DNA of 64,000 bases from Planctomycetota bacterium (GTDB lineage Bacteria; Planctomycetota; B15-G4; SIAN01), in assembly GCA_031409275.1 (NCBI GenBank), contig JANNXA010000018.1, forward strand, positions 59,339 to 123,338. The letters are read 5' to 3'. This document shows, in pieces, positions 16,196 through 36,453 of the stretch. A model generated the notes under the pieces. That model ran no database searches and had not been told where the DNA came from. It worked only from the letters and a program-made list of their open reading frames with translations. Each line of letters opens with the position of its first letter. Position 1 is the stretch's first letter. A program made the translations under genes and the position numbers.

Positions 16196-16259
16196 GCTCG
16201 GACAGCGCGGGAACCAGGCCTCAAAGCGCCGACCAAGCGCAACGACCAGGAGCGGGAAC

Positions 16260-19200: not shown

Positions 19201-19499
19201 ACATGCCGGGCGGCGTCGTCCCGACGGGCAAGTCGGCCGCGGACATGGCGCCGGACCTGAGCTACGCCAGGGAGCGCCTGTCGCCGAGCTGGGTGCGCCA
19301 CTGGCTCGAAGTTCCCGAGGTCTACCAGCCGGGCACGCGCATGCCGCCGTTCTGGAAGGTGGAGGGCGGCGTCCGGCCGAGCGTCGATCCCGACATCAAC
19401 GACCCCGAACGCGAGATGTCGCTGTTGCGCGACTACCTTTTCTCCTCGCAGTTTGCTGCCGACTACGAGCGCGTCGCCAAGAAGGCGCGGGGCGAGTGA
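16260..19499 (+). CDS. Large membrane-anchored multiheme cytochrome c (8 CxxCH)
   Basis: CISCH, CSGCH, CYKCH, CFGCH, CMGCH, CFGCH, CVGCH, CVLCH; N-terminal TM followed by a long coiled-coil; repeated GP/AP-xL...MP class I modules. Confidence 0.93.
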   Translation: MADEGIRDAGATFFNLKAMNRWFFASVAVLTVAYFWSVVQDHDREFKSYQGRFFEMERQLSVQQGNAAFNAAGGATTIGDGAGNPGELREEIVRLQGMLAADHDKRPELALKLHDTQFHFDVKNAEMKMAKAVFEAERFIYEELAHHLNEHALEAPHSEEAKVAYEKYKDLKRKYEELDEANKQAEAARDAARDELARLDALAGDVAVKLEVAEREVGRLEKRADSLDSERLFTKFRNSIFFSFMSPTLAPKKIVVPEIFDDLNFLSVPKVDMCISCHLATDRFKDYPAGNSHVTFGDEKNALQNEDDSAAFRSHSKPELFCTSLSPHGQERFGCSGCHGGGNQRANFKQTWHTPTDAHEREVWEDELHWHPVHEWEYPMLGSKFLDASCYKCHQQEVHIQGAPTWNRGRDLVAKLGCFGCHKMAPFDGARRVGPPLGHVATKFSDLDFMLKWVDEPASFRPSTRMPAFFHRENRAMEPGRDAAEITALVAYLYNLSSPQALKSYPGNGDAAKGKQLFGESGGVGCMGCHGIDDFPEEVNDRVAKLDALRHGPELSGIGSKVTPDWLFTWLLDPKSLWPQTNMPNLRLTEQEAADLVAYLMTKRNVAFEQQVFEKPADDAPFEQILLEKLTERMTEARATLDISAMSGLEKRRKAGEYLLNHYGCFGCHDIPGYEDSKPIGAELNGWGSKHPDRLDFGMVEFEWKNPEVGKFNRESWIDQKLKNTRFYDRGKDKKPFEKLKMPQFSQLMEGVPDGDRDAVMTFVLSLVKDNTAESIKRHLTPDEAAVERGAKLVREKNCVGCHLLYGEGGEIRHFQFGEAGKAFYPPILDGQGARTQPEWLTHFLADPVFGKGAGAKAHLRPWMKARMPTFGFDQSQLNDIVAYFAHEKVWHTSTDRTLWDSIATKFRKDFLGYEEAQLRKADHTKVKLFHDLVARTYEKQGGGFVFKSDYPYMEKPAELAGGDLDKARNLFEKLQCVLCHMPGGVVPTGKSAADMAPDLSYARERLSPSWVRHWLEVPEVYQPGTRMPPFWKVEGGVRPSVDPDINDPEREMSLLRDYLFSSQFAADYERVAKKARGE

Positions 19500-19511
19500 T
19501 TTGCGGAGTGA

Positions 19512-19534
19512 TTGAGATCTGAATCAGATCTCAA
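19512..19534. promoter_or_regulatory. Perfect 11-bp inverted repeat TTGAGATCTGA-A-TCAGATCTCAA, candidate operator or RNA hairpin
   Basis: AT-rich palindrome in the short gap between the cytochrome c gene and the oxidase sub-cluster. Confidence 0.55.
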
Positions 19535-19555
19535 CTCCACGTGAGGAACCGAACC

Positions 19556-20395
19556 ATGAAGCGATCGAACGAAAAGACCCTCTGGATGCTCGCGCTCGGC
19601 ATTGCCGGCATCGCGCTGGGTGCTGCCTGCGGCGGCGGTGAGTCGCGCAGCCGCAAATCCATTCGCGGCAACGTGGAAAATTCGGCGGCGGCACCCGCGC
19701 CGGGCGCATCCGGTGGTGCGGCTACGACGCAGGCCGCCGGTGGCCCGAAGAAGGTCGATCCGGCGACGGCGGGCACGATCACCGGAATCGTCAAGTGGGA
19801 CGGTGCGCGCCCGACGCCCGAGGCGCTCGACCTGTCGGGCAACCCCGACTGCTCGAAGGCGATCAAGGAGACGGTCTACAAGGAAGACCTCGTCGTCAAC
19901 GCCGACAACACTGTGGCGTTCGCGTTCGTTTCGATCGACACCAACGATGTCTACGAGACTCCGACCGAGCCGGTCGTCATCGACCAGATCGGCTGCCACT
20001 ACGTGCCGCACGTCCTCGCTGCGATGGTCGGGCAGAAGATCAAGATCAAGAGCTCGGACGCGACGCTGCACAACGTCCACTACCTCGGAACGGTGAACAC
20101 CGACCTCGAGGACAACTTCGCGATGCCGGCTCCCGGTGTTCGCGAGCGCTCCTTCACTGCCGCCGACTGGGTGAAGTTCAAGTGCGACGTGCATCCGTGG
20201 ATGGGCGCGTGGCTCGCCGTGAGGTCGCACCCGTTCTTTGCGGTCACGGGCACGGATGGCAAGTTCACCATCGCCAGCGTCCCCGCCGGGACGCACAAGC
20301 TCGTGATGAAGCACGAGTCGCTCGGCGAGCAGTCGGTGACGGTGACGGTCGAGGCCGGCAAGACGGCCACCGCTGAGTTCACGCTGAAGAAGTGA
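19556..20395 (+). CDS. Lipoprotein with cupredoxin-like core and carboxypeptidase-regulatory-like C-terminal domain
   Basis: Lipobox LGAAC; IDQIGCHYVPHV, HNVH, KCDVHPWM, HPFFAVT.DG.F.I..VP.G. Confidence 0.8.
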   Translation: MKRSNEKTLWMLALGIAGIALGAACGGGESRSRKSIRGNVENSAAAPAPGASGGAATTQAAGGPKKVDPATAGTITGIVKWDGARPTPEALDLSGNPDCSKAIKETVYKEDLVVNADNTVAFAFVSIDTNDVYETPTEPVVIDQIGCHYVPHVLAAMVGQKIKIKSSDATLHNVHYLGTVNTDLEDNFAMPAPGVRERSFTAADWVKFKCDVHPWMGAWLAVRSHPFFAVTGTDGKFTIASVPAGTHKLVMKHESLGEQSVTVTVEAGKTATAEFTLKK

Positions 20396-20468
20396 CCGAC
20401 GTCTGTCTGGCCCGCGACGCGTGATGCGTCGCGGGCCTGCTGTTTGGAACGACGCCCCGGAGGCGCTC

Positions 20469-21314
20469 ATGCCGCAGGTTCGACCGCCCGATTTCGGCGA
20501 AGCGTGGAAGTGGTGGCTCCCGCCGCACTACTCCTCGTTCGGTGACGACATCGACTTGATGTTCCATTGGATCTTCTGGATCACGATGGTGACGTTCGTC
20601 GGTGTCGAGCTGGCGCTGCTGTACTTCTGCTTCAAGTACAAGAAGAACCCCGCCCGCAAGGCGACCTACACGCACGGCAGCCACTCGCTCGAAGTGGCGT
20701 GGACGGTGATTCCGGCGGTGATTTTGGTGGGTCTCGGCGTCGCCAGCACCAAGCTGTGGGCGACCATCAAGAACCCGACGGACTCCGACTATCCCAAGGA
20801 GTTCCAGACGACTGTCAAGATCGCCGCCAAGCAGTTCGCCTGGAACGTCACCTACCCCGGGATCGACAAGCAGTTGGGCACGGACGACGACTTCACCGAG
20901 ACGAACATCCTGAACGTCCCGTACGAGCCGATCGACGCCGAGGGCAACGCCACGACCGAGGAGAACGTCCGCGTCATGCTGACGTCGATGGACGTCATCC
21001 ACTCGTTCTTCGTGCCGGTGCTGCGCCTGAAGCAGGACGCAGTTCCCGGCTACATCGGCAACGTCTGGTTCGACGTGCAGCGAATGACCTATCCGGGCCC
21101 CGACAAGAAGCACCTGACCAACGACACCAAGCCCTCGGACGACGGGATCACTCTCGTCGACTGGGAAGAGAGCTACGAAGTGGCGTGTGCCGAGCTGTGC
21201 GGCCTGGGCCATTCGCAGATGCGCATGCAGTTGAAGGCGGTGCCGCGCGCGGACTGGGAAGCGTGGGTCGCGGTGAAGTCGGCCGCTGCCAAGCAGCGCG
21301 CCGCCTCCAAGTGA
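20469..21314 (+). CDS. coxB: Cytochrome c oxidase subunit II (CuA)
   Basis: Two TM helices, LEVAWTVIP, KQFAW, DVIHSF, KQDAVPG, CAELCGLGHSQM. Confidence 0.95.
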   Translation: MPQVRPPDFGEAWKWWLPPHYSSFGDDIDLMFHWIFWITMVTFVGVELALLYFCFKYKKNPARKATYTHGSHSLEVAWTVIPAVILVGLGVASTKLWATIKNPTDSDYPKEFQTTVKIAAKQFAWNVTYPGIDKQLGTDDDFTETNILNVPYEPIDAEGNATTEENVRVMLTSMDVIHSFFVPVLRLKQDAVPGYIGNVWFDVQRMTYPGPDKKHLTNDTKPSDDGITLVDWEESYEVACAELCGLGHSQMRMQLKAVPRADWEAWVAVKSAAAKQRAASK

Positions 21315-21383
21315 TCGCGCGACCCCGCTCGTTGCGCCCGCACTTCTGTCCAAACGATCGAATCCGGCTTGGAGCCGAATGAC

Positions 21384-23381
21384 ATGAGCACGACCGCCAC
21401 CGCCCCAGCCCACGCGGACCCTGCCGCCGGGCACGGCCATCACGAGCTCTCGTTCCTGCGCAAGTGGGTCTTCTCGACCGACCACAAGGTGATCGGGCTG
21501 CAGTACCTCTTCTGCTGCCTCTTCACGCTGATGGTCGGCGGCCTGCTCGCGCTGATGGTTCGCTGGCAGATCGCCTATCCGGCCGGCGCCAAGCCGACGC
21601 AAGAGCAGGTGCAGGAGCTGCGCGACCGTGGATTGTCGGGCGCTGAGCTCTCCGCAGAGCTCGCGAAGATCGACAACGATCGCCCGTTCCCGATCCTCGG
21701 CGAGGTTCTTTGGGGCGAGCACCTCGAACCCGAACTGGTGAACAACGGCGAGATCGGCGAGCCCGGCTTCTTCGGCAACAGCAACGGGATGATGCCGGCC
21801 GAGTGGTACAACGTCGCCTTCACCATGCACGCGTCGGTGATGATCTTCCTGGTCATCATTCCGATGCTGACCGGCGCGTTTGGCAACTGGGTCATCCCAT
21901 TGCAGCTCGGTGCCAAGGACATGGCGTTCCCGTTCTTGAACGGGTTGTCGTTCTGGACGTGGATCTGCGCGGTCCTGATCCTCTTCGCCAGCTTCTTCGT
22001 GACGCCCAACGGCGTCGGCGCTGGCGCGGGCTGGACTTCCTACCCGCCGTTGAGCGGCGTCGTGAGCCCGTCGGCCGGACCTGGCCAGACACTCTGGTGC
22101 ATCGGGGTGATCATCGGCGGAACGTCCTCGATCATGGGGGCGATGAACTACATCACCACGATCGTCAACCTGCGCGCGCCAGGGCTCACGCTCTTCCGCA
22201 TGCCGCTGACGACATGGGCGGCGTTCATCACCGCGATCCTGCAGCTCTTCGCGACGCCAGTCCTCTCCTCCGCGATGGCGATGCTGCTGTTCGACCGCCA
22301 TGCGGGAACCAGCTTCTTCCTCCCTGAAGGGCTGGTCTTCAGCGATGCGCCGGTACCCAACGCCGGCGGCGGCCAGGTGATCCTCTGGCAGCACATCTTC
22401 TGGTTCTATTCGCACCCGGCCGTCTACATCATGATCCTGCCGGCGATGGGCATCGTCTCGGACGTGATCGCGGTCTGGTCGCGCAAACCGGTCTTCGGCT
22501 ACCGGCCGATGGTCTACTCCATGTCCGCGATCGCCGGGCTCGGCTTCGTGGTGTGGGGACACCACATGTTCCAGTCGGGCATGAACCCGGTGCTCGGAAC
22601 CACCTTCATGATCTCGACGATCATGATCGCGCTGCCAAGTGCCGTGAAGGTCTTCAACTGGCTCGGAACCTTGTGGGGTGGGCAGATCACCTTCTCGCCC
22701 GCGCTCCTGTTCGCGCTTGGGTTCGTCTCGATGTTCGTGATCGGCGGCCTGTCCGGCATCTACATGGCCAACGCGCCGTTCGACATGTTCATCCACGACA
22801 CCTACTTCATCGTGGCGCACATCCACTACGTGCTCTTCACGGGCTCGGTGATGGGCATCTTCGCGGGCATCTACCACTGGTTCCCGAAGATGTTCGGGCG
22901 CCACATGAATGACGGGCTCGGCAAGCTCCACTTCTGGCTGACGTTCGTCTTCATGAACGGCGTCTTCTTCCCGATGCACATCATCGGGCTCGGCGGCTAC
23001 CCGCGCCGTTACGCGAGCTTCCGCGGCTACGACTTCCTCGCGCCGTACGAGGGCATGAACATCTTCATGACCTGGTGCGCCATCCTGCTCGGACTTTCGC
23101 AGCTCGTCTTCCTGGCGAACTTCTTCGGCGGGATCCTGTTCGGGCGCAAGACGACGAGCGACAACCCTTGGCACGCCAGTTCGCTGGAGTGGTCGACGTC
23201 GACCCCGCCGCCGCACGGCAACTGGATCGGACCAGTGCCGACCGTGTACCACGGTCCCTACGAGTACAACCACCCCAACTGCAAGGAGGACTACGCTCCG
23301 CAGTGGATGCCGATGCAGCTGAACGCTGCGGCAACGGCGCCTGCGGCGACGGCGCCGGTGGCGACGACGCCGGGTCACTGA
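21384..23381 (+). CDS. coxA: Cytochrome c oxidase subunit I, A2-type heme-copper oxidase
   Basis: STDHKVIG, TMHAS, DMAFP, GWTSYPPL, FWFYSHPAVY (YS motif), WGHHM, AHIHY, GYPRRY. Confidence 0.97.
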   Translation: MSTTATAPAHADPAAGHGHHELSFLRKWVFSTDHKVIGLQYLFCCLFTLMVGGLLALMVRWQIAYPAGAKPTQEQVQELRDRGLSGAELSAELAKIDNDRPFPILGEVLWGEHLEPELVNNGEIGEPGFFGNSNGMMPAEWYNVAFTMHASVMIFLVIIPMLTGAFGNWVIPLQLGAKDMAFPFLNGLSFWTWICAVLILFASFFVTPNGVGAGAGWTSYPPLSGVVSPSAGPGQTLWCIGVIIGGTSSIMGAMNYITTIVNLRAPGLTLFRMPLTTWAAFITAILQLFATPVLSSAMAMLLFDRHAGTSFFLPEGLVFSDAPVPNAGGGQVILWQHIFWFYSHPAVYIMILPAMGIVSDVIAVWSRKPVFGYRPMVYSMSAIAGLGFVVWGHHMFQSGMNPVLGTTFMISTIMIALPSAVKVFNWLGTLWGGQITFSPALLFALGFVSMFVIGGLSGIYMANAPFDMFIHDTYFIVAHIHYVLFTGSVMGIFAGIYHWFPKMFGRHMNDGLGKLHFWLTFVFMNGVFFPMHIIGLGGYPRRYASFRGYDFLAPYEGMNIFMTWCAILLGLSQLVFLANFFGGILFGRKTTSDNPWHASSLEWSTSTPPPHGNWIGPVPTVYHGPYEYNHPNCKEDYAPQWMPMQLNAAATAPAATAPVATTPGH

Positions 23382-23475
23382 GTTTCGCCGTCGCAGACGA
23401 ACGTCCTCGGATGAGCCCCGCTGGTTCGCGCCCGACGAGGGGGAGGCCAGAATCGGCGGGGAATGAGGTCTCGAG

Positions 23476-24441
23476 TTGTTGAACGCGAATCCCCCCGCTG
23501 CCGTGATCGAACCGAGCAGCAGCGCTGCCGCGCTCGAGCGTCCGCGCCACGCGGGGCGCCACCGATTCGCCTGTTTCCACGTCTGCGCGACGTTCTGTCT
23601 GATCGCGTTTGGCGCTTCGGTGACCAGCAATGACGCCGGTCTCGCGGTCCCCGACTGGCCGACGACCTACGGCGACCTGAATCCGATCGCGCCGTATTTG
23701 CGCGGCCTGGTCAGCGGACTGATCGCGTTGGAGCACAACCACCGCGTGATCGGGATGGTGGTCGGATTGCTGACCATCGCGCTGTGCGTCTGGATCTGGC
23801 GCACCGCGGAGACGACCCTGGTGAGACGCCTGGGAGTCATCCTCCTCGTCGCCGTCTGCGTGCAGGGCGGACTCGGCGGACTCACCGTGCACATGAAGCT
23901 GCCTGCAGCGGTCTCGATCGCGCACGGCATGCTCGCGCAGTCGTTCTTCTGCCTCTCGATCGCGACCGCCTATCTCCTCGCGGGGGAGGCCCGCGCTGCA
24001 GGCGGAAGCATCGCGCGCGGCTCGCCGACCGCCGCGGCGCGCTCGCTGCAGCGCTCGGCGGCGCACGTCTTCATCGCGGTCTTCCTGCAGCTCTTCTTCG
24101 GGGCGCTGGTGCGTCACACGGTTGCCAAGTGGCGCGTCCCGACCTTCGGCGACACGCCGGTCCTGCTGCACATGCTCTTCGCTCTGGTGGTGTTGTTGGT
24201 CGTCGGCCGCTTCGTCGCAAAGGTCACTTCCGAGTCGCCGCCGGGCTCCCGTCTTTCGGCTCCGGCGATCGCTCTCGCAGCGCTGGTCCTCGCGCAGTTG
24301 CTGCTCGGGCTGTTCGCGGTCGCGACACGGACCGATCCGCTCGTCACCGTGCTCCACGTCATCACGGGCGCCTCGATCCTCGGGACGAGCCTCTTCACGT
24401 GGTTGCGCAGCCATCGCCTGGCGGCGCGGGAGCCGGCATGA
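23476..24441 (+). CDS. ctaA: Heme A synthase (COX15/CtaA family)
   Basis: AGLAVPDWP, EHNHR, QGGLGG, AHGMLAQ, two further His (LLHM, VLHV); start codon uncertain. Confidence 0.88.
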   Translation: MLNANPPAAVIEPSSSAAALERPRHAGRHRFACFHVCATFCLIAFGASVTSNDAGLAVPDWPTTYGDLNPIAPYLRGLVSGLIALEHNHRVIGMVVGLLTIALCVWIWRTAETTLVRRLGVILLVAVCVQGGLGGLTVHMKLPAAVSIAHGMLAQSFFCLSIATAYLLAGEARAAGGSIARGSPTAAARSLQRSAAHVFIAVFLQLFFGALVRHTVAKWRVPTFGDTPVLLHMLFALVVLLVVGRFVAKVTSESPPGSRLSAPAIALAALVLAQLLLGLFAVATRTDPLVTVLHVITGASILGTSLFTWLRSHRLAAREPA

Positions 24442-25292
24442 GGCTGCCGTCGCTGCGCGATCTGGTGATGCTGACCAAGCCGCGCATCGTCGTCGCCGGT
24501 GCGATGGCAGCGCTGGCTGGGTACCTGGCGCCGCGGGATCACGTGCAGATCGGACCGCTGCTCGAAGCGCTCGCGGCGATCGGCGGCATCACGGCCGCCG
24601 CCGGAATCCTCAATCAGGTGCTCGAGCGCGATGTCGACGCCCTCATGCCGCGCACCGCGGGCCGCCCGCTTCCTGCGGGACGAGTCGACGTTTCGTTCGC
24701 GATCCTGCTCGGGTGCCTCCTCGCGGCGGCGAGCCTCGCGCTGACGGCGTGGCGCATCAACGGCCTCACCGCGGCGCTCATGCTGTTCGCCTTCGTCTCG
24801 TACCTCTTCGTCTACACGCCGCTCAAGCGCCACACGACGCTCAACACCTTCGTCGGCGCGGTGCCCGGCGCGCTGCCGCCGGTGCTCGGATGGGCCGCCG
24901 CGTGCAACGACCTCGGTCGCGGCGCCTACGCGCTGTTCGCGATCCTCTTCCTCTGGCAGTTGCCGCACTTCCTCGCCATCGCATGGCTCTATCGGCGCGA
25001 CTACGAGCTCGGCGGATTGAAGATGCTCCCGGCGCGCGATCCCGATGGGGAACTGGTGTCGCGCCAGATGTGCATGCACGCCGTGTCGCTGTGCCTCGCG
25101 GCGATGCTGCCGTTCATCTTCCGCATGGCGGGGCCGGTTTACCTCGTCGGCTCCTTGCTGCTTGGCATCAGCTTCGCGGTTCCGGCGTTCCGCTTCTGGC
25201 GCGTACGCAGCGACGTGCGCGCGCGCCAGGTGATGCGCGCCTCGTTGATCTACCTGCCCGGCATCCTCTTCCTTCTGGCGCTCAAGGCATGA
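24438..25292 (+). CDS. ctaB: Protoheme IX farnesyltransferase (heme O synthase)
   Basis: LTKPRI, NQVLERDVDALMPRT..RPLPAG, YTPLKR, GAVPGALPP, WQLPHF. Confidence 0.96.
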   Translation: MRLPSLRDLVMLTKPRIVVAGAMAALAGYLAPRDHVQIGPLLEALAAIGGITAAAGILNQVLERDVDALMPRTAGRPLPAGRVDVSFAILLGCLLAAASLALTAWRINGLTAALMLFAFVSYLFVYTPLKRHTTLNTFVGAVPGALPPVLGWAAACNDLGRGAYALFAILFLWQLPHFLAIAWLYRRDYELGGLKMLPARDPDGELVSRQMCMHAVSLCLAAMLPFIFRMAGPVYLVGSLLLGISFAVPAFRFWRVRSDVRARQVMRASLIYLPGILFLLALKA

Positions 25293-25615
25293 ACACCTCC
25301 GCCCGCGAGGAAAGCCGCGCCCCCGCGCGAACTCCACCGATCGAGCCGCCGATGGACGCGAGCCTCGACGAAGCGGTGCGCCGACGGCGACTGCGCCGCT
25401 TCGGCCTCGCGCTTGCGGCCGTCGTCGTGCTGCTCGTGCTCTTCGCGGTCGGCTACGTCAAGTTGTTCGACCGCGTGCTCGCCGATCCGTCGCGCCCGCC
25501 GACCGCCACCGCCGCACCCAATCCACGCGTCCTCACCTTCGAGTTGCTGCTCGCCGCGGCGATCGCGGTCGGTGCCACGACGTGGTGGGTGCGCCGCCAA
25601 AGGCGAACGCCATGA
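25289..25615 (+). CDS. Small two-TM hypothetical membrane protein
   Basis: ATGA overlaps with ctaB and the SCO gene; two hydrophobic segments. Confidence 0.7.
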   Translation: MNTSAREESRAPARTPPIEPPMDASLDEAVRRRRLRRFGLALAAVVVLLVLFAVGYVKLFDRVLADPSRPPTATAAPNPRVLTFELLLAAAIAVGATTWWVRRQRRTP

Positions 25616-26343
25616 CCGAACCGACCGATCCCGCGCCCCCCTCGAAGTCGACGGCGGCCGCACCGGCGCGGCCGGGCTCCTTCGCGCCGATCGCCCTCGG
25701 CATCGCGCTCATGCTTCTGATCGCGGTCGTCATCCAGCGCATGCAGCGCGGTGGCGAGCCCGTCGGAAGCGGCGCGCAGGACGTGACCGCCAAGGGCGCG
25801 AAGCTCGCGGTGTGGGGGCCGATGCCCACGCTCGAACTCGTCGACTCGTCGGGTCGTCCCTTCGCGCTGGCGGGCCAGAAGGGGCGCGTCACGGTCGTGA
25901 ACTTCTTCTTCACCGGCTGCCCGGGTCCGTGCGTCGACCTCACGCAGAAGGTGCGCACGTTGATGTCGAGCTTCCGCGCGCAGCCCGACGTCGACTTCGT
26001 CAGCATCAGCGTCGATCCCGAAGCGGACACGCCGGACCAGCTCACCACGTTCGCGCGGGTGCAAGGCGGCGAGTTCCCGCGCTGGCATTGGTTGACGGGG
26101 ACGAAGGAGCAGATCACCGCGGTCTGCCTCGGCTTCTTCGCGCCGTTCGGCGACAAGGACGATGCGGGCGACATCGTCCACTCGACCAAGCTCTACGTGG
26201 TCGATCGCGAAGGGCGCATCCGCTCGATGGTCAACACCCAGATCGATCCCGATTGGCTCGGCTCGGCTGCGCACGCCATCCGGCTGCTGATCGCCGGCGA
26301 CGCAGGCGCGGCGGATGCCGAGCTGCCGTCGAAGTCGCCCTGA
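25612..26343 (+). CDS. SCO1/SenC copper chaperone
   Basis: N-terminal TM, NFFFTGCPGPC (CxxxC), SISVDPEADTP, WHWLTG, IVHST. Confidence 0.93.
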   Translation: MTEPTDPAPPSKSTAAAPARPGSFAPIALGIALMLLIAVVIQRMQRGGEPVGSGAQDVTAKGAKLAVWGPMPTLELVDSSGRPFALAGQKGRVTVVNFFFTGCPGPCVDLTQKVRTLMSSFRAQPDVDFVSISVDPEADTPDQLTTFARVQGGEFPRWHWLTGTKEQITAVCLGFFAPFGDKDDAGDIVHSTKLYVVDREGRIRSMVNTQIDPDWLGSAAHAIRLLIAGDAGAADAELPSKSP

Positions 26344-26356
26344 GATCCACGCCCCG

Positions 26357-26806
26357 ATGTTGTTGCTCGCCTTCCATCTGCCGACGCTGAACGCCTGCCT
26401 CAACGCGCTGGCCGCGGTGCTGCTGACCTGCGGCTACATCGCCATTCGCCGCCGCGCGATCGAGGTGCACAAGCGTTGCATGCTGGCCGCGTTCGCGACC
26501 TCGACCGTCTTCCTGGTCTGCTACCTGATCCACAAGGCGACTGCCGGTCACACGTCGTTTCCAGGCAGCGGCGGCGCGAAGAAGATCTACCTCACGATCC
26601 TGCTGACTCACACCGTGCTTGCGGCGAGCGTGGTTCCGCTGGCGCTGTTGACGATTCGCGCGGCGCTCACGAAGCGCTTCGAGCGCCACAAGAAGCTGGC
26701 GCGCGTCACCTTTCCGATCTGGCTCTACGTCTCGGTGACCGGGGTCGTGATCTGGTGGTTCCTCTACTCGGGCACGTTCGATCCAGCCGTGACGACGCCG
26801 CGCTGA
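26357..26806 (+). CDS. DUF420 (CtaM-like) membrane protein
   Basis: LPTLNACLN, HKRCM, FLVCYL, ILLTHTVLA, FERHKKLAR.TFPIWLYVSVTGV. Confidence 0.92.
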   Translation: MLLLAFHLPTLNACLNALAAVLLTCGYIAIRRRAIEVHKRCMLAAFATSTVFLVCYLIHKATAGHTSFPGSGGAKKIYLTILLTHTVLAASVVPLALLTIRAALTKRFERHKKLARVTFPIWLYVSVTGVVIWWFLYSGTFDPAVTTPR

Positions 26807-26874
26807 CGGCTCGCGATGGACCCGACGCTTCGGCTTCGCGGCGGCTCGATCGACCGGCTGCTATGGTGGCGCCC

Positions 26875-27192
26875 ATGACGTCGTCCGCGAAGCCATCGCT
26901 GCGGTCCATCGCGCATCGCGCCGCCGCGTGGTGCCGGTTCGCGCTGCTCGCGGCGTTGCTGCTCGGCGGTCCGCTGCCGCGGGCGGCGGCGCAATGTTCG
27001 ATGTGAAAAGCTTCGGCCTACGATCAGGTGGATCGTGCCCAAAGTGATCGGCTCGGCTCGGCGTTCAACCTCAGCGTCTACTGGATGCTGGCGGTGCCAG
27101 GCCTGATGATCGCCGGATTGGCGACCTTGATCGCGGTGAACGTGCGCGCCCGCGTGCGCCTCGAAGCGCAGTCGACGCACGACCGCCAATGA
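26875..27192 (+). CDS. Candidate selenoprotein: signal peptide + C-S-M-U motif + C-terminal TM anchor (105 aa, in-frame TGA at 27004-27006)
   Basis: Signal-like ...LLAALLLGG..AAA|QCSM(TGA)KASAY...SAFNLSVYWMLAVPGLMIAGLATLIAV; frame stays open to TGA 27190-27192 overlapping the dapF ATG; SECIS-like hairpin follows the internal TGA. Confidence 0.72.
27010..27045 (+). promoter_or_regulatory. Putative bacterial SECIS element
   Basis: GGC-(CU bulge)-ACGAUC-[AGGUG]-GAUCGU-GCC with extendable lower stem; apical loop begins 20 nt after UGA with G at loop position 2. Confidence 0.65.
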
Positions 27193-28037
27193 GCTCGCTG
27201 CCGTTCGTCAAGCTGCATGGCTGCGCCAACGACTACGTCCTGATCGATGGCGACGTGGTCGCGTCCGCGGAACTCGGCGCGTTCGCGCGCGCGGCGTGTG
27301 ATCGGCGCCGCAGCGTCGGAGCCGATGGCGTGCTGGTGGTGCTGCCGTCGCCGGTGCCGGGCGCGTCGGCGCGCATGGCGATGATCAACCCCGACGGCAG
27401 CGAAGCGGAGATGTGCGGCAACGGGCTGCGCTGCCTCGGCAAGTTCCTCTTCGATCGCGGGCGGGTCGCGCGCGAGTTCGCCGTGGAAACTCGTGCCGGA
27501 GTCGTGCCGATGGTGGTCGAGGAGGTCGATGGCGCGGGCCACGCGACCCTTCTCACCGCGACGATCGGCGTGCCCGACTTCCGCCGCTCTGCGGTTCCGA
27601 TGGCGGGTCCACCGGAAACTCCCGCGCTCGACGAATCGTTCGCGCTGGCGGGCCGCACGCTGCGGCTCACGGCGCTGCGTCTGGGCAATCCCCATGCGGT
27701 GGTCTTCGTCGACGACGTGTTGCACTACCCGGTGCATTCGGTCGGGCCCGCGCTCGAGCACGACCCGCGCTTCCCGGCGCGGATCAACGTCGAGTTCGTC
27801 GAGGTCGTCGCGCCCGACCGACTGCGCCAGCGGACCTGGGAGCGCGGCGCCGGCGAGACGCTCGCTTGCGGCAGCGGCGCGACCGCGGCGGCCATCGCCG
27901 CGCGGAAGGTCCGCGGCTTCCCGGCGGTCGTGCGGGTGGAACTGCAAGGCGGGGAACTCACCGTGCGATGGGGCGGGGCGGGCGAGCCGGCCCATCTGAC
28001 GGGCCCGGCGATCGAGTCCTTCCGCGGCACGCTCTGA
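27189..28037 (+). CDS. dapF: Diaminopimelate epimerase
   Basis: FVKLHGCANDY, VGADG, NPDGSEAEMCGNGLRC, GNPHAV, INVEF, ERGAGETLACGSG. Confidence 0.96.
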   Translation: MSSLPFVKLHGCANDYVLIDGDVVASAELGAFARAACDRRRSVGADGVLVVLPSPVPGASARMAMINPDGSEAEMCGNGLRCLGKFLFDRGRVAREFAVETRAGVVPMVVEEVDGAGHATLLTATIGVPDFRRSAVPMAGPPETPALDESFALAGRTLRLTALRLGNPHAVVFVDDVLHYPVHSVGPALEHDPRFPARINVEFVEVVAPDRLRQRTWERGAGETLACGSGATAAAIAARKVRGFPAVVRVELQGGELTVRWGGAGEPAHLTGPAIESFRGTL

Positions 28038-28116
28038 GCTCGTGGCCGTTGCGCCATCCCCGGCACGATCGGCCGCGGGCTCCTATACTCCCGCGCCGTT
28101 CGTTGGGAGGTGTGAT

Positions 28117-29091
28117 GTGAAGCGGTCGAGAGGTGGTGGTTTCGGCGGCGCCGGCGGCACTGGCGGTGGCGGCGCGGCGAGCGGCGGCACTGGGGCGGCG
28201 GCGGCGCGGGCGCTCGAGCCATCGTTGGCGGCGAATCCCGCCGAGAGCGACGGTTGGTTCAGCGTGAGTCGCGCCGCGCAGTTGCTGTCGATGCCGCTGC
28301 CGCGGATCTTCGACGCGATTCGCGACGGCAAGTTGCAGGTCCGATTCGAGCCGGGCAAGCCCGGTGAATCGGACAAGCCGCAAGTCACGTCGCCGGAGCT
28401 GCGCCAGAAGGCGGCACTGCCCGACCTGAGCGCGACCCCAACTCCGACTTCCGCTGCGAGTTCGCCGAATGCGGCGAACGCGCCGAACGCGCCGAGTGCG
28501 GCCACGTCCCGCGCGCTGTCCGCGGCGCCCTCGATGCCCTCGCCGCCGCCGACCGAAGCGCTGCTCGAGGAGTCGCGCCGCGCGGTCACTCGCCTTGAAG
28601 CGGAGGCGAAGGAGTCGCGTGCGACCTTCGAGGCGCTCGAAGCGCAGGTCGACGCCGCACTGAAGGCGGTCTACGAACGCGACGTTCGCATCGCTCGACT
28701 CGAATCCGAGGTCGCCACCAACGTGAAGCTGCGCGAAGGCGCGGACGGCTTCATCCGTCACCTCGAATCGCGGCTCGACAAGAACGAGGAGCGCTCCGAG
28801 GAGAAGGAGAAGGAGATCCGCCGCCTGGCCGTCGGGCTCGGCGAGGCACGCGGCGAGATCCGTCTGCTGAAGCCGCCCGACGCGCCGCCTCCGTCCGCGT
28901 GGCGTCGCCACGGCCGCGACGCGCTCGTCTTCCTCGTGGCGGTGGCGGTCGGCGGCGTCGTCGGCTACTTCGCGTACAAGTTGTCGAACAGCAAGCTGAC
29001 GCTCGAAGCGAGCGTTGCGGCAGGCGCGGGAGCGTTGGCTTCATGGATCGCCGCGACGTTGGTCGAACGGTTGCGCCGAGCGAAGGGGTGA
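28117..29091 (+). CDS. Hypothetical protein: HTH-like segment, coiled coil, two C-terminal TM helices
   Basis: GTG after GGGAGG, with TATACT at 28084; WFSVSRAAQLL..IRDGKL resembles an excisionase-type HTH; heptad-rich middle. Confidence 0.7.
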   Translation: MKRSRGGGFGGAGGTGGGGAASGGTGAAAARALEPSLAANPAESDGWFSVSRAAQLLSMPLPRIFDAIRDGKLQVRFEPGKPGESDKPQVTSPELRQKAALPDLSATPTPTSAASSPNAANAPNAPSAATSRALSAAPSMPSPPPTEALLEESRRAVTRLEAEAKESRATFEALEAQVDAALKAVYERDVRIARLESEVATNVKLREGADGFIRHLESRLDKNEERSEEKEKEIRRLAVGLGEARGEIRLLKPPDAPPPSAWRRHGRDALVFLVAVAVGGVVGYFAYKLSNSKLTLEASVAAGAGALASWIAATLVERLRRAKG

Positions 29092-30080: not shown

Positions 30081-33000
30081 TCAGCGCGGTGTCGTGCCGG
30101 AGACCGCGTTGGTCATCGCAAAGCCGTCAGCGGCGCCCGGATCGAGCACGAGCGCCTGGAGGAAGAAGCTCTCGCCGCCCGGGATGTCATCGCTGATGCA
30201 GTCGGAGTAGCTGAGTGTGCCGTTGCCGTCCGTGAACAGACCCGAGAGAACGATGTCGGGTGCCGGCACCAGCACGCCGCCGACGAACGGCAGACAGGTC
30301 GGCGTCAGTCCGACGACGAGCCACGCCGGCGCATTCGCCAACGCGCCGGTGACGTCGGCGGTGATCAACGTGAGCGGTCGCATGTCGCCGGTCATGGTCA
30401 ACACCGGCGCACCATTGGTCCCGGCCAGTGCATGGCCGAGGTCGGCCCACGCGCCGGTCGGCTCGCTGCGGAAGCGAACCGTGCAATAGAGCTGCGTCGG
30501 GTCGACGCTGGCGGCGGTGATCGCCGCGCCGTCGCAAGGGGACGCGTCCTGGAACGAGAGGCCGCCCGTCGTGACGAGCGGTCCGTCGACGAGCGGGCCA
30601 CTGATGGCCGTCGCGCGCAGCTTGGAGACTCGCACCGCGAGGCGATAGAGCCGACCCGGAGCGAGCGTCGCATCGATCGTGTGGTAGTTGCGATCGTTGC
30701 GGACGCGAACTCCGTAGCTGCGCAGCCCGCCCTCCGCCAGCACCGGGTTCAGCGGGTCGGTCACGTCCCAGACGAAGACGTTCCCGAAGACGCCGCTGCA
30801 GTTGACGGCCGGAGCGAGCTGACCGTCGATCACGAGCTCTTCGAGGCGTTCTGCGGTGGCGGCGCCAGTCGTGTCGATCTCCATGCCGACGAACCAGTTG
30901 CTGGCGGGAGATGGACTCGGAGCGGGTAGCGGCGTGTCGATGCCGGCCAGCACGAGGCCGCCGTTCACCGTGGTCAGCGGCTCGATCGGCGCGCCGGGCA
31001 CGAAGTCGCAGCCGTCGATCCGCACGCGCCCGCTGCGGAAGACGACGATTTCGCGATCCTGCAGTTGCGCGAGGTCGAGATCTCCGAGCACCGGGTTCAC
31101 GTGGCGATCGACACGCATGGTCTTCTGCGCGGCGTTGCCTTTGAAGTCGACGATCACGCGGAAGTGGACGTCCTTGGAGGGATCGGGGTCGGGGTCGACC
31201 GGCAACGCGAAATGGAGCACGTACTCGTTCTGGTTCAGGTAGCCGGCCGAGGTCGAGACGACCTTGGTGCGGCGGTTGGTGTCGGTCGGGTGGTCGAACG
31301 GGACGATCGTGACCTGCGCGCCGAACTCCGATTCGAGCCCGTCATCGAAGCGATCGGAGTCGCGCATGACGCGCACGCGCACGTGACGCTTCTGATCGGC
31401 GGGGGTGTTGGCGTCGTAGGTGTAGTTCTCGTACAGGCGTCCCTTCTCGCCCCAGTTGCCCAGCGCCGAGTCGAGGTCGCCGTCCTTGTCGAAGTCGCCC
31501 CAGGCCGGCGTGGCGTCCGTCACGTGGCCGGCCGGGATGCTGTGGGTGGCGACCGTGAAGTGGCGATCGCCGCCGGTCTCCTGGAACTGGTTGCGGCGGA
31601 ACACTTCGCTGCTGGTCACGTCGACGTCGCCGTCGTTGTCCCAGTCCTCGAAGGAGAGGCCGAGGCACAGGCCGGTGTTGAACGAGTCGAAGAGGCTCTT
31701 GTTCTGGACCTTGAAGGTGCCGTCACCGAGGCTCTCGAACATGCGCACGCCCTTGGTGCTGTCGCAGAAGGCGAGGCAGAGGTCCATGTCCCCGTCCATG
31801 TCGTAGTCGAGGAAGCCGCCGCCCTCGTCGAGGATGTCGCTGAAGACCACTCCGGAGCCGTTCTCGGTCATCGCCTCGAAGAGCGGATTGCCGAGCGTCG
31901 AGAGGTTCCGGTAGATCGTGTTGTTCGAGTAGAGGTCGAGGTCGCCATCGAGGTCGACGTCGACCCACTCGGCCCCCTCGGGTCGGTTCACCGGTAGCGG
32001 CGGGTTGTCGAGGCCGGCCTGCGCCGAGAGTTCACGGAAGGTGTAGACGCCGTTGGCGTCGGGCCCGTCGTTGTAGAGGAAGAAGTTCCCCGGCCCGCCG
32101 ATCCACGACGGATAGACCGGGAAGAACCAGTCGAGGTTGGCGTCGCCGTCGATGTCAGCGACCGAGTTCGTCTCGCAAGGCGCGATGGGGCGCACGTCGA
32201 CGCGGTTGGGGTTGCCGCTGATCTCCTCGAAGACGTCGCCACCGAGCGCATGGAGGAAGTAGGCACCGCCGACGCGCGGCTCGTCGCAGATGTCGAGCAG
32301 CTGGTCGTTGTCGTAGTCCGCCATCGCGCAGCCGTAGCGCGTGCCCTTGCCCATGTAGACCGACAAGTCGATCTGCTTGACCCAGTCGGCACCCGCGAGG
32401 TTCCGCCAGAGCGCCTCGCCATCGGCATTCACCACGTCGATCCAACCGTCGTGGTCGTAGTCGCCGAAGCTGATGCCGAAGGTGGCGCCGAAGATCAGCC
32501 CGGAGGAGAACGAGCCGCCCTTCCAGAGCTGCAGCGGCACGTCATCGGCCGCCGGTCCGAACCGTGAACTCGTCGAGTAGCTCGTCGAGTGAAGCGCCAG
32601 CACGGCGCCTTGCGACTTGCCGACGAGGATGTTGTTGGGCATCCACGCCATGCGCCAGACGTCGTCGGGACCGGGCGGCAAAGCGGGCGCCCACTCCTCC
32701 GGGAAGGTCCCGCCGACCATCGCGTCATCGCGCCATTCGCGCGAGTAGACGACGTTGGTGATCGGCGAACGTCCGGTGTTGCGCAAGGTCACGCCGATCA
32801 CCAATGCTCCGGTGAACGGGCAGAAGGAGAAGGTGTGCTCGATCTCGAGCGCGCCGACCTTGCTGACCGTCACGGCGCCGCTCGCCGTGAAGCTGCTCGA
32901 GACGGGAGTCACCGGCGTCCGCCGGGCGTAGTCGGCGTTCGGTCCCGCGCCGACGGCGCTCACATGTCCGCCGAGCGTGTCGAACGACAATCCGAACCAC

Positions 33001-33200
33001 TCGGCCGTTCCTGGCGAGAACTCGATCTGCGGCCCATAGGTGGTGCAGAGTCCTTCGGCGGGCGGCGCCAGCATCACTCCGATCGGATCGAGACGCACCG
33101 AGTACTGCCCGTTGCTGATCGATTGCGCGGCTGCAGTCGCGCTGATCGCGGCGATCGCGGCCGGCAGCGCAACGCGCGAAAGGAAGGTGGGTGGACTCAT
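30081..33200 (-). CDS. Secreted FG-GAP/VCBS-repeat beta-propeller protein (CRTAC1/ASPIC-like), paralogue 1
   Basis: Signal peptide; repeated DxDxDGxxD motifs (GDYDHDGWID, ADIDGDANLD, GDFDKDGDLD). Confidence 0.9.
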   Translation of the reverse strand: MSPPTFLSRVALPAAIAAISATAAAQSISNGQYSVRLDPIGVMLAPPAEGLCTTYGPQIEFSPGTAEWFGLSFDTLGGHVSAVGAGPNADYARRTPVTPVSSSFTASGAVTVSKVGALEIEHTFSFCPFTGALVIGVTLRNTGRSPITNVVYSREWRDDAMVGGTFPEEWAPALPPGPDDVWRMAWMPNNILVGKSQGAVLALHSTSYSTSSRFGPAADDVPLQLWKGGSFSSGLIFGATFGISFGDYDHDGWIDVVNADGEALWRNLAGADWVKQIDLSVYMGKGTRYGCAMADYDNDQLLDICDEPRVGGAYFLHALGGDVFEEISGNPNRVDVRPIAPCETNSVADIDGDANLDWFFPVYPSWIGGPGNFFLYNDGPDANGVYTFRELSAQAGLDNPPLPVNRPEGAEWVDVDLDGDLDLYSNNTIYRNLSTLGNPLFEAMTENGSGVVFSDILDEGGGFLDYDMDGDMDLCLAFCDSTKGVRMFESLGDGTFKVQNKSLFDSFNTGLCLGLSFEDWDNDGDVDVTSSEVFRRNQFQETGGDRHFTVATHSIPAGHVTDATPAWGDFDKDGDLDSALGNWGEKGRLYENYTYDANTPADQKRHVRVRVMRDSDRFDDGLESEFGAQVTIVPFDHPTDTNRRTKVVSTSAGYLNQNEYVLHFALPVDPDPDPSKDVHFRVIVDFKGNAAQKTMRVDRHVNPVLGDLDLAQLQDREIVVFRSGRVRIDGCDFVPGAPIEPLTTVNGGLVLAGIDTPLPAPSPSPASNWFVGMEIDTTGAATAERLEELVIDGQLAPAVNCSGVFGNVFVWDVTDPLNPVLAEGGLRSYGVRVRNDRNYHTIDATLAPGRLYRLAVRVSKLRATAISGPLVDGPLVTTGGLSFQDASPCDGAAITAASVDPTQLYCTVRFRSEPTGAWADLGHALAGTNGAPVLTMTGDMRPLTLITADVTGALANAPAWLVVGLTPTCLPFVGGVLVPAPDIVLSGLFTDGNGTLSYSDCISDDIPGGESFFLQALVLDPGAADGFAMTNAVSGTTPR

Positions 33201-33312
33201 CGTTCGAAGCTCCTGGTGATGAAACGACGCACCTCTCGGCTGCCGATCCGGGCAGCTCCGTGGGCCTCTTCAGTATCCATGGCCGAGGGCGAAGTGGCCC
33301 GGACTGTTTCGT

Positions 33313-36300
33313 TCAGCGCGGCGTGGTCGCGGAAACCGCATTGGTCATCGAGAAGCCGCGCGCGGCACCCGGATCGAGGACGAGCGCCTGCAGGAAGAAG
33401 CTCTCGCCGCCGGGAAGGTCGTCACCGAGGCACTCGGAGTAGCTCATGGCGCCGTTCGCATCAGTGGACGCTCCCGACAGCACGACGTCGGGTGCGGGAA
33501 CGAGCACGCCGCCCGCGAACGGCAGGCACGTCGGCGTCAGTCCGATGACGAGCCAGATCGGGGCATTCGCCAGGGCACCATCGACGTCGGCCGTCACCAG
33601 CGACAGCGGTCGCAGATCGCCTCCCATGGTCAGCCGCGGCGTGCCTTGGGTCCCGGTCAGCGCGTGGCCGAGGTCGGCGAACGCGCCGGTCGGTTCGCTG
33701 CGGAAGCGAACCGTGCAGTAGAGCCGCGTCGGGTCGACGCTCGCGGCGCTGATCGCGGCGCCGTCGCACGGAGACGCGTCCTGGAACGAAAGGCCGCCCG
33801 TCGTGAGGAATGGCCCATCGAGGAGCGGGCCGGTGATGGTCGTGGCGCGCAGCGCCTGCACGCGCACCGCAAGTCGGTAGAGCCGGCCCGGCTCGAGTGT
33901 GGCATCGAGAGCGTAGTAGTTGCGATCGTTGCGCGGTCGGATCGCGAAGTTGCGCATTCCTCCAGCGGCCAGCATCGGATTCAGCGGATCGGTGACATCC
34001 CACACGAACGTGTTGCCGAGCAACCCGCCGCAGTCGACGCCGCTCGCGAGCTTGCCGTCGACGACCAGCTCCTCGATGCGTTGCGCCGAGGTCGCGCCGC
34101 GCGTGTCGATCTCCATGCCGATGAACCAATCGCCGGCGGGCGCCGCGATCGGCGCCGGGATCGCGGTGGTGAGGCCTGCCATCACCAGGCCGCCGTTCAC
34201 CGTCGTGAGCGGTTCGAGCGACGCGCCCGGAATGAAGTCGCAGCCGTCGATTCGCACCCGTCCGCTGCGGTAGATGACGATCTCCCGCTCCTGCAATTGC
34301 GCGAGGTCGAGGTCGCCGAGCACGGGGTTGACGTGGCGATCGACGCGGACCGTCATCTGGGCCGCGTTGCCCTTGAAGTCGACGATGACGCGGAAGTGGA
34401 CGTCCTGGTTCGGATCGGGATCGGGGTCGGTGGGCAACGCGAAGTGGAGCGTGTACTCGTTCTGGTTCAGGTAGCCACCCGACGTCGACACGACTTTCGT
34501 GCGACGGTTGACGTCGGTGGGGTGGTCGAGCGGGACGATCGTCACCTGAGCGCCGAACTCCGTCTCGAGACCGTCGTCGAAGAGGTCGGAGTCGCGCACC
34601 GGCTTCACGCGGAGATGGCGCTTCAGCTCGGGCGCGGTCGTCGCGTCGTAGGTCGTGTTGTCGTAGAGGTGACCAGTGGAGGCCCAGTTGCCGATCGCCG
34701 CGTCGACGTCGCCGTCGCGGTCGAAGTCGCCCCACGCCGGAGTCGCTTCGCTGATGTGGGTGGGATCGATCGAATGGGTGGCGATCGTGAAGTGGCGCCC
34801 CCCGTCGCTCTCGATGAACTGATTGCGCCGGAAGATCTCGCTGCTCGATACGTCGACGTCGCCGTCGTTGTCCCAATCCTCGAACGAGAGGCCGAGCGGC
34901 AAGCCGATGAAGGCGCCGTCGAAGAGCCCTCGCGACTGGACCTTGAAGTTCCCATCGCCACGGTTCTCGTACATGCGCAGGCCGACGCTGCTGTTGACAT
35001 GGAACAGGCACAGGTCGATGTCGCCATCCATGTCGTAATCGAAGAGGCCGGCACCCTCCTCCGCGTCGAGCCCGAACGACATGCCGCTTGCCGTCGGGTC
35101 GAGCAGCTCGAACGACGGCGTGCCCGCGCTCGAGACGTTGCGGTAGATCGCCACGCACGCGTAGAGGTCGAGGTCGCCGTCGAAGTCGAAGTCGGCGAAG
35201 CCGGCGCCTTCGGGCAGCTGCCCGATCGGAGGGTTCTCGAGCCCGGCTTCGGTCACCATCTCGTGGAAGGCGTAGACGCCGTTGGCGTCCGGGCCGAGGT
35301 TGTAGAGGAAGCGGTTGCCGATGCTGCCGCCGTTGATGCCGTAGATCGGGAAGAACCAATCGAGATTGCCGTCGCCGTCGACGTCGGCAACCGAGTTGGT
35401 CTCGCACATCGCGGTGCACATCGGGTCATCGACGATGGCGGGGTCGAGGGCGACGTCCTCGAAATCATCGTTGCCGAGCGAATGGAGCACGTGGACGCAG
35501 TCGCCACGCGGCTCGTTCGCGATGTCGGGTCGTTGGTCGTTGTCGTAGTCGGCGACCGCACAGCCGTAGGGGACGAAGAAGTCGTTCAGCCACGGGCTGA
35601 GGTCGACCTGTTCCACCCAGTCGACGCCGGCCAGATTGCGCCAGATCTTCTTGCCACTCGAATTCACCACATCGATCCAGCCATCGTGGTCGTAGTCGCC
35701 GAAGCTGATGCCGTTGGTGTTCCCGAAATCGAGCCCGCCTGGAAATGTGGCATTGGTCCAGAGGCGCAGCGGCAGGTCGTCGCTGGCCGGGCCGAGTTTC
35801 GAGCCGCTCGACCGTTGAGTCGGCATCAACACCAGCGAGCGTCCTTGCGACGCACCTGGCGAGAGCTCGTGCAGCTCCCACGCGAAGCGCATCACGTCCG
35901 CCGGGATCGGCGCGAGCCGCTCCGCGAGGGTTGGCGGGAACGTCGCGCCGTCGATGGAGTCACGGCGCCATTCGCGGGTGTAGACGACGTCGCGCAACGG
36001 CGCGCGTCCGGTGTTGCGGAGCGTCGCCGTGATGATGAGCGCGCCGGTGAACGGGCAGAACGAGAAGCGGTGCTCGATCTCGAGCGCGACGCCGATGCCG
36101 GCCGTGACCGAGCCGAGGGTGAGCGCGCGGTCGGGCGCGAAGAGGCTCGAACCGGAGCTCACCGGCAGGCGGTTGGCGTAGTCGGCGACCGCGCCCGCCC
36201 CGACCGCGCTCACCTCGGCGCCGAGTGCGTCGAAGGTGACGCCGAACCACTCCACCGTCCCTGGCACGAAGAGCGCTCGCGGCCCGAAGGTGGACACGAG

Positions 36301-36453
36301 ACCGGCGGCGGGAGGCGCCACCATGACGCCGATCGGATCGAGGCGGACGGTCGTGGTGCCGTCGCTGATCGATTGCGCGCCGGCATCGGCGAAGCCGACG
36401 AGGAGCGCGGCGACGGTGGCGGAGCCGCTTCGAGACGGAACGCGTGATCGCAT
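33313..36453 (-). CDS. Secreted FG-GAP/VCBS-repeat beta-propeller protein, paralogue 2
   Basis: Collinear with 30081-33200 over the full length; same repeats and C-terminal ...NAVSxTTPR. Confidence 0.9.
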   Translation of the reverse strand: MRSRVPSRSGSATVAALLVGFADAGAQSISDGTTTVRLDPIGVMVAPPAAGLVSTFGPRALFVPGTVEWFGVTFDALGAEVSAVGAGAVADYANRLPVSSGSSLFAPDRALTLGSVTAGIGVALEIEHRFSFCPFTGALIITATLRNTGRAPLRDVVYTREWRRDSIDGATFPPTLAERLAPIPADVMRFAWELHELSPGASQGRSLVLMPTQRSSGSKLGPASDDLPLRLWTNATFPGGLDFGNTNGISFGDYDHDGWIDVVNSSGKKIWRNLAGVDWVEQVDLSPWLNDFFVPYGCAVADYDNDQRPDIANEPRGDCVHVLHSLGNDDFEDVALDPAIVDDPMCTAMCETNSVADVDGDGNLDWFFPIYGINGGSIGNRFLYNLGPDANGVYAFHEMVTEAGLENPPIGQLPEGAGFADFDFDGDLDLYACVAIYRNVSSAGTPSFELLDPTASGMSFGLDAEEGAGLFDYDMDGDIDLCLFHVNSSVGLRMYENRGDGNFKVQSRGLFDGAFIGLPLGLSFEDWDNDGDVDVSSSEIFRRNQFIESDGGRHFTIATHSIDPTHISEATPAWGDFDRDGDVDAAIGNWASTGHLYDNTTYDATTAPELKRHLRVKPVRDSDLFDDGLETEFGAQVTIVPLDHPTDVNRRTKVVSTSGGYLNQNEYTLHFALPTDPDPDPNQDVHFRVIVDFKGNAAQMTVRVDRHVNPVLGDLDLAQLQEREIVIYRSGRVRIDGCDFIPGASLEPLTTVNGGLVMAGLTTAIPAPIAAPAGDWFIGMEIDTRGATSAQRIEELVVDGKLASGVDCGGLLGNTFVWDVTDPLNPMLAAGGMRNFAIRPRNDRNYYALDATLEPGRLYRLAVRVQALRATTITGPLLDGPFLTTGGLSFQDASPCDGAAISAASVDPTRLYCTVRFRSEPTGAFADLGHALTGTQGTPRLTMGGDLRPLSLVTADVDGALANAPIWLVIGLTPTCLPFAGGVLVPAPDVVLSGASTDANGAMSYSECLGDDLPGGESFFLQALVLDPGAARGFSMTNAVSATTPR

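Follow-up and report, generated by a model that had tools for sequence, protein, structure and literature searches.

In Bradyrhizobium, the Cys residues of Sco or of the apo-CuA site are maintained in the reduced state by TlpA. Copper is donated to CuA, together with Sco, by PCuAC or by CtaK of B. subtilis; PCuAC is described as the usual partner of Sco, and both donors hold His and Met in a folded soluble domain (PMC9145763, available text). CtaM has been proposed to be a copper exporter in the accessible part of PMC13344008, and CutF of Rhodobacter was found by its neighbourhood to a cuproenzyme and is required for that enzyme's maturation, as the available portion of PMC8456105 reports. Table 1 of PMC13188914 catalogues 119 selenoprotein families, and the same source states that, among the selenoproteins known so far, CxxU and UxxC mostly serve as redox motifs and that aerobic bacteria rarely retain selenoproteins. 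Its Fig. 2 legend gives the bSECIS model as a loop of 3-9 nt, a stem of 4-16 bp, a G in the first two loop positions, a spacing of 16-37 nt and an MFE <= -7.5.

Here we analysed a window, a 64,000-nt stretch of a Planctomycetota genome (contig JANNXA010000018.1), in which a run of cytochrome oxidase and oxidase assembly genes ends in a small gene that very probably encodes a selenoprotein. The relevant features, in window coordinates, are the following.

20421..25292, + strand, cox2 (CuA ligand motif in the sequence), cox1, ctaA and ctaB, in the same co-directional cluster
25582..26343, + strand, SCO1/SenC copper chaperone (PF02630, E 9e-22)
26315..26806, + strand, DUF420 / CtaM, directly upstream of the window gene (PF04238, E 3e-43)
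26875..27192, + strand, the window gene, for a predicted small membrane selenoprotein, 105 aa long when the UGA is taken as Sec (ORF reading, homologs)
26875..26991, + strand, predicted signal peptide ending A-A-A (sequence and hydropathy; cleavage predicted before Gln40 from sequence)
26995..27006, + strand, C-S-M-U motif; the predicted Sec codon, TGA 27004-27006, is residue 44 and the only in-frame TGA
27019..27037, + strand, bSECIS-like hairpin with a 7-bp stem, loop AGGUG and a spacing of 19 nt from the UGA (fold, bSECIS model, covariation)
27070..27138, + strand, predicted single TM helix with the S-V/I-x-x-M family motif, followed by a basic tail (hydropathy, motif)
27189..28037, + strand, dapF, overlapping the stop of the window gene, an overlap common to close relatives only

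The co-directional run is ordered cox2, cox1, ctaA, ctaB, a 108-aa ORF, SCO, DUF420 and the window gene. The 108-aa membrane ORF (25289-25615, between ctaB and SCO) has no Pfam match and is weakly conserved in close relatives. Before cox2 (15125-20395) lie genes for a protein with a cytochrome b C-terminal domain, for a multiheme cytochrome c of 1079 aa and for a protein with a carboxypeptidase-regulatory-like domain, and the cox3 genes of the source genome are on other contigs (C19, C27). Two tandem paralogs of ~1040 aa, which we take to be FG-GAP-like repeat proteins, occupy 30081-36453 on the minus strand. No promoter-like site was found in 23300-28200.

A sequence-only reading of this DNA had placed the in-frame TGA at the fourth position of a C-x-x-C pattern and had predicted a TM helix with a basic tail beyond it and a stop overlapping the dapF ATG. 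All three points were borne out: reading the ORF through the codon gives C-S-M-U in the context AAAQ-C-S-M-U-K, a hydropathy peak at about residues 65-88 precedes the basic tail, and the stop at 27190-27192 overlaps the dapF ATG at 27189 (ATGA, 27189-27192). The remaining hydropathy maximum is the signal region, and a polar linker separates the motif from the helix. By the positive-inside rule, the N-terminus of the protein is predicted to lie outside, and in most homologs an A-x-A is followed by Q-C or A-C. The start codon is ambiguous between ATG 26863, GTG 26866 and ATG 26875. As to an assembly error at the TGA, which the earlier reading had raised, contigs from 4/4 runs carry identical letters over the codon, although these runs come from one study, two of them may be the assembly source, and the agreement is not independent of the assembly.

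The source genome (G000, 93% complete) contains selA, selB, selD and tRNA-Sec (selC), the complete machinery on which the earlier interpretation had depended. TGA ends 758/909 long, high-GC3 ORFs in this genome and has therefore not been reassigned. We also observed that selD of the source genome (L016, contig C40), directly after selA, has its own in-frame TGA (C-A-G-U-A-A-K) and a hairpin. Contigs C9, C28 and C51 hold more candidates for an in-frame TGA, each followed at 22-23 nt by a hairpin, their motifs being a thioredoxin-like U-G-P-C, V-P-G-U-S-T-C, and F-T-U-I-N-C in a long ORF; the genome-wide CxxU/UxxC scan filtered out the window gene itself and is no census of selenoproteins. Within the order, 39/41 genomes (G001-G041) have selA, several in two copies.

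The TGA was present at this codon in 6/6 relatives, comprising all four congeneric genomes and the two from a sister genus (g1, g2), with an open frame and similar sequence after it; G006, the seventh family member, carries a distant Cys copy. Metagenome loci had TGA in 17/18 cases and Cys in 1/18. The 43 loci from the genome collection divided into 37 with TGT or TGC, mostly from Bacteroidota and Acidobacteriota, and 6 with TGA, all from Planctomycetota and identical to the six close relatives, so that they are not to be counted twice. Furthermore, a profile search returned 119 proteins, 109 of them with CxxC; the five best matches, P0009-P0013, are closely related Cys orthologs with E as low as 4.6e-24. 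Seven of the 10 non-CxxC proteins were fragments starting downstream of the motif, as a gene split by TGA would be called; public protein sets contain genes of this family as truncated fragments. Both expectations of the sequence-only reading held: homologs have a Cys at the position of the TGA and resemble the protein before and after it, and other genomes keep the TGA together with the hairpin. A word-seeded protein search with a single query gave 0 matches among 57 candidates. As side observations, P0103 reads C-P-S-W, where a TGA may have been translated as Trp, and P0145 reads C-S where relatives show C-U or U-U. One metagenome CxxU copy (L085, 1552-1575) has an extra in-frame TAG seven codons on, at a conserved Gln codon within the hairpin, where the stem pair persists as U-G; this copy may be a pseudogene or an assembly error.

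The hairpin of the window gene consists of UACGAUC (27019-27025), the loop AGGUG (27026-27030) and GAUCGUG (27031-27037), with an energy of about -12.1 to -12.3 kcal/mol (-12.1 in a 45-nt fold). It agrees with the bSECIS consensus (a 5-nt loop with G in second place, a 7-bp stem and a spacing of 19 nt) and it covaries, although it is not stabler than shuffles: when 62 nt were folded z was 0.03 and a different fold won. The stem paired in 97/98 cells (99%) across 14 distinct relatives, with an A-U to G-C change in 4/14 distinct sequences that is probably one event, and such a stem appeared in 11/2000 synonymous recodings of the window gene. Support for the hairpin thus comes from its conservation and from the recoding control, not from the folding z-score. 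The sequence-only reading was right about the AGGUG loop and the loop start 20 nt after the UGA, but the lower GGC/GCC stem that it had added is unconserved, the next outward pair forming in 1/14 distinct relatives.

A 73-row profile matched at least 117/401 sampled Planctomycetota genomes, a floor given that 13 candidates were scored per genome. With four additional genomes included, 128 copies were read, comprising 59 CxxC, 40 UxxC, 21 CxxU, 2 UxxU, 3 CU and 3 UU forms. The earlier proposal of a Sec form of a small CxxC protein was supported for the second Cys, but it missed Sec at the first position, at both, and in adjacent C-U and U-U pairs. Among the 117 genomes, which are kin and whose counts are not independent, 64 have TGA at the motif and selA was found in 64/64; a further 24 have selA although every copy found in them has Cys, and the remaining 29, with no or only a weak selA match, all have Cys (0/29 with TGA). 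G009 has no selA match, but has selB and tRNA-Sec. The motif TGA is therefore kept across genera and ~20 families, only where the Sec machinery exists. Copies from family f74 (L117, L160, L167, L168, L169) seemingly lack a full signal peptide and have only a very short leader ahead of the motif. Outside Planctomycetota, the phyla searched yielded no Sec form: in Acidobacteriota (the phylum of G419) 69/251 genomes matched, a tally that includes the unpublished genome G446, which was used for no other result, and the 3 matches with TGA had only terminal stops, while the phylum of G421 gave 3/251 matching genomes.

The placement of the hairpin differed between the Sec positions. A model hairpin lay 16-23 nt after the codon in 35/40 UxxC copies, compared to 7/40 when measured from their own Cys, and in 29/40 the distance from the first motif codon to the loop (mostly GGUC) was 17 nt, forcing the peptide A-V-A. 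GGT occurred at +18 to +22 in 33/40 UxxC and 15/21 CxxU copies, compared to 1-4 of 27-30 CxxC controls. Under the strict 16-23 nt model 11/21 CxxU copies passed and 10/21 failed; under the wide 16-37 nt model controls often passed too (15/30). Moreover, stems were present in 32/40 UxxC and 16/21 CxxU copies, where synonymous recoding would lead one to expect 6.6 and 5.4, and three stem pairs of the UxxC copies showed G-C/C-G/A-U swaps. The predicted hairpin thus moves with the Sec position in the family, and two positions with separately placed hairpins would therefore imply at least two Sec gains. A tree on 69 columns gave 19 Sec/Cys changes but was weakly resolved, with starred branches forcing 2-4 per group; in it, gain was indistinguishable from loss, and one UxxU copy fell within the UxxC copies.

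A profile built from six CU/UU rows matched 65/401 genomes. Thirteen new loci were read, giving 10 TGA-TGA, 1 TGC-TGA, 1 UxxC and 1 CxxC; in the 10 TGA-TGA loci the codons directly follow the signal peptide and the conserved membrane helix is in frame. In total, 13 UU and 4 CU genomes were found, each with selA or selB, and four of the 24 genomes with only Cys in the copies above (G353, G080, G317, G248) carry a UU paralog. Eleven UU copies follow cox3(-cox4), and G377 and G262 form a separate group with a Cys-Cys homolog, P0146. Many CU/UU copies have two hairpins, located ~13 nt and ~35 nt beyond the final UGA. The nearer one had a stem of >= 6 bp in 11/14 parsed copies (3 were not parsed), compared to 3.5 expected, while the wide-range hairpin model did not discriminate, with 14/14 copies matching and 10.4 expected. 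TGATGA may be a double stop, and it contains an ATG in another frame, but the homologs with CU and CC and the conservation of the frame beyond the codons argue against that reading. An assembly error was considered for the C-TGA of G009 and rejected, since the same motif occurs in other genomes.

Together, the conserved TGA, the Cys orthologs, the hairpin following the Sec position and the Sec machinery indicate that the UGA of the window gene is decoded as Sec in a SelB-dependent manner, to which we assign a probability of about 0.95.

The constant partner of the family is the oxidase operon. Family members are encoded within operons for aa3-type oxidases, where they most often follow SCO-DUF420 or cox3-cox4 and also ctaB; an oxidase or assembly gene was near 38/43 loci, and with wide flanks oxidase genes were found at 20/22 Sec loci. 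The link to SCO/DUF420 drawn by the sequence-only reading held for the 30/43 loci with DUF420 directly upstream, but it is the operon and not DUF420 that is constant. Some genomes (G064, G119, G140, G158, G112) have two paralogs in different oxidase clusters. Conversely, no family member was found within 1.5 kb of DUF420 at 23/23 loci in other genomes of the order (f2, f3, f4, G006), and the profile at E<=0.001 matched 0/33 genomes of families f2, f4 and f5. Thus, SCO-DUF420 oxidase clusters exist without the family, and its apparent absence from these relatives' clusters would count against an essential role. Neither PCuAC nor Caa3_CtaG was found in the source genome, and PCuAC was found in 1/80 family-carrying genomes, a count of carriers only; PCuAC could be scarce throughout the phylum.

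Conservation across the family is limited to the thiol/selenol pair, which directly follows the predicted cleavage site, and to the membrane motif, the latter of S-I-x-x-M type in 120/128 copies. A Met lies inside the motif in 37/59 CxxC and 18/21 CxxU copies, and in the 25 residues after the motif a further Cys occurs in 7/128 copies and a His in 8/128. From operon context and potential ligands, we lean towards a putative role of the Cys/Sec pair in binding Cu(I) and handing it off during assembly of aa3-type oxidase. Cleavage after AAA would leave Q-C-S-M-U as a free N-terminus outside the membrane, and the single-span, N-out protein would show its thiol/selenol pair, often with Met in between, at the outer membrane face. 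The metal would be bound by Cys, Sec and nearby Met, and copper from CtaM/DUF420 and Sco could be relayed to CuA or CuB by this protein, in the position that PCuAC fills elsewhere. We favour this role because CxxC and CC spacing are both tolerated, there is no thioredoxin fold, and CtaM and Sco are nearby.

Alternatively, the protein could be a minimal thiol/selenol reductant for the cysteines of Sco or apo-CuA and not a copper carrier. Sec at either motif end would suit such a function, CxxU and UxxC being the usual redox motifs in the available text of PMC13188914, and TlpA is missing in many bacteria, where other reductants are presumed according to the accessible part of PMC9145763. However, the protein has no thioredoxin domain and only ~25 residues outside the membrane, an extra Cys for recycling is not conserved, and changes between CxxC and CC spacing would be hard to fit to one redox geometry, making this function unlikely. 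Still less likely is a small accessory subunit, or a redox or oxygen sensor, that stays on the oxidase or supercomplex: the constancy of the oxidase operon as neighbour, whether the gene follows DUF420, cox3-cox4 or ctaB, the membrane motif, which suggests a membrane partner, and the paralogs in different oxidase clusters would all agree with it, but the protein matches no solved chain, oxidase subunits included, and is undetected in many oxidase-bearing relatives. Finally, a true stop at the window TGA (pseudogene, nonsense mutation or assembly error), or its decoding as another residue, is very improbable, since the z-score of the hairpin and the further TAG of L085 that could speak for it are set against a TGA kept across families only with Sec machinery, an open and conserved downstream frame, agreeing run contigs, the use of TGA as the main stop in the source genome, a hairpin that shifts with the TGA and, for the U-U form, the Cys-Cys homolog P0146.

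Returning to copper hand-off as the favoured function, we tentatively suggest, at a little under even odds, that Planctomycetota have repeatedly put Sec into an unnamed assembly factor of oxygen-reducing heme-copper oxidases, which would be a selenium-based copper chaperone, and that one subfamily decodes UGA-UGA as a Sec-Sec N-terminus (a vicinal diselenol) with two tandem hairpins. The family brings a widespread group of selenoproteins into aerobic respiration, a setting in which such proteins are described as uncommon, and it suggests that the cytochrome oxidase operons of bacteria contain a component that has been overlooked; other oxidase assembly factors, too, have no function assigned. 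Since CxxC, UxxC, CxxU, UxxU, CC, CU and UU occur in one synthesisable scaffold of ~60 residues, the question of selenium versus sulfur is directly testable. Moreover, adjacent UGA-UGA would, if true, be a test case for SelB and coding-region SECIS in back-to-back recoding.

The family is probably undescribed. Pfam placed 0/11 members over cut-off, NCBIfam (June 2026) 0/14 and 0/26 Sec or Cys members, and the sequences of the PDB, oxidase subunits included, gave no match (best E 0.063, unrelated). In the ESM Atlas no named family was found, neighbours and database names being 'hypothetical protein', and P0146 carries one unrelated-looking JGI label. The full-text literature covered, including the available parts of PMC13326102 and PMC12013277, gave no description, and supplements beyond this coverage could contain the family. 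The available Table 1 of PMC13188914 lists no family of oxidase operons with a signal peptide, a Cys/Sec pair and a single TM helix, and its motif column has UxxU, UxxxxU and CU and no adjacent UU.

The family shares with SelB/bSECIS selenoproteins an in-frame UGA at a conserved Cys, a hairpin with a loop G 16-37 nt away, and selABCD, and differs from the families of that catalogue, as far as its accessible part extends, in being a signal-peptide, Cys/Sec-pair, single-TM protein of oxidase operons. Like TlpA-type periplasmic thioredoxins, it would present a membrane-anchored CxxC outside the membrane and is linked to Sco/CuA, in their case to reduction, but it is far smaller and has no thioredoxin domain in Pfam and PDB sequence searches. 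PCuAC and CtaK are likewise small, exported and linked to oxidase assembly, whereas the window protein carries a Cys/Sec pair on a short segment with a TM anchor and has no PF04314 match. CutF (DUF2946), which acts for a multicopper oxidase, has a CxxxC motif and ends in PP (PMC8456105), in contrast to the window protein with its TM helix and basic tail, no terminal PP and no DUF2946 (PF11162) match. CutF is nevertheless a small, poorly conserved protein with a signal peptide and a Cys motif, and by analogy it would be the best functional analogue of the family described here.
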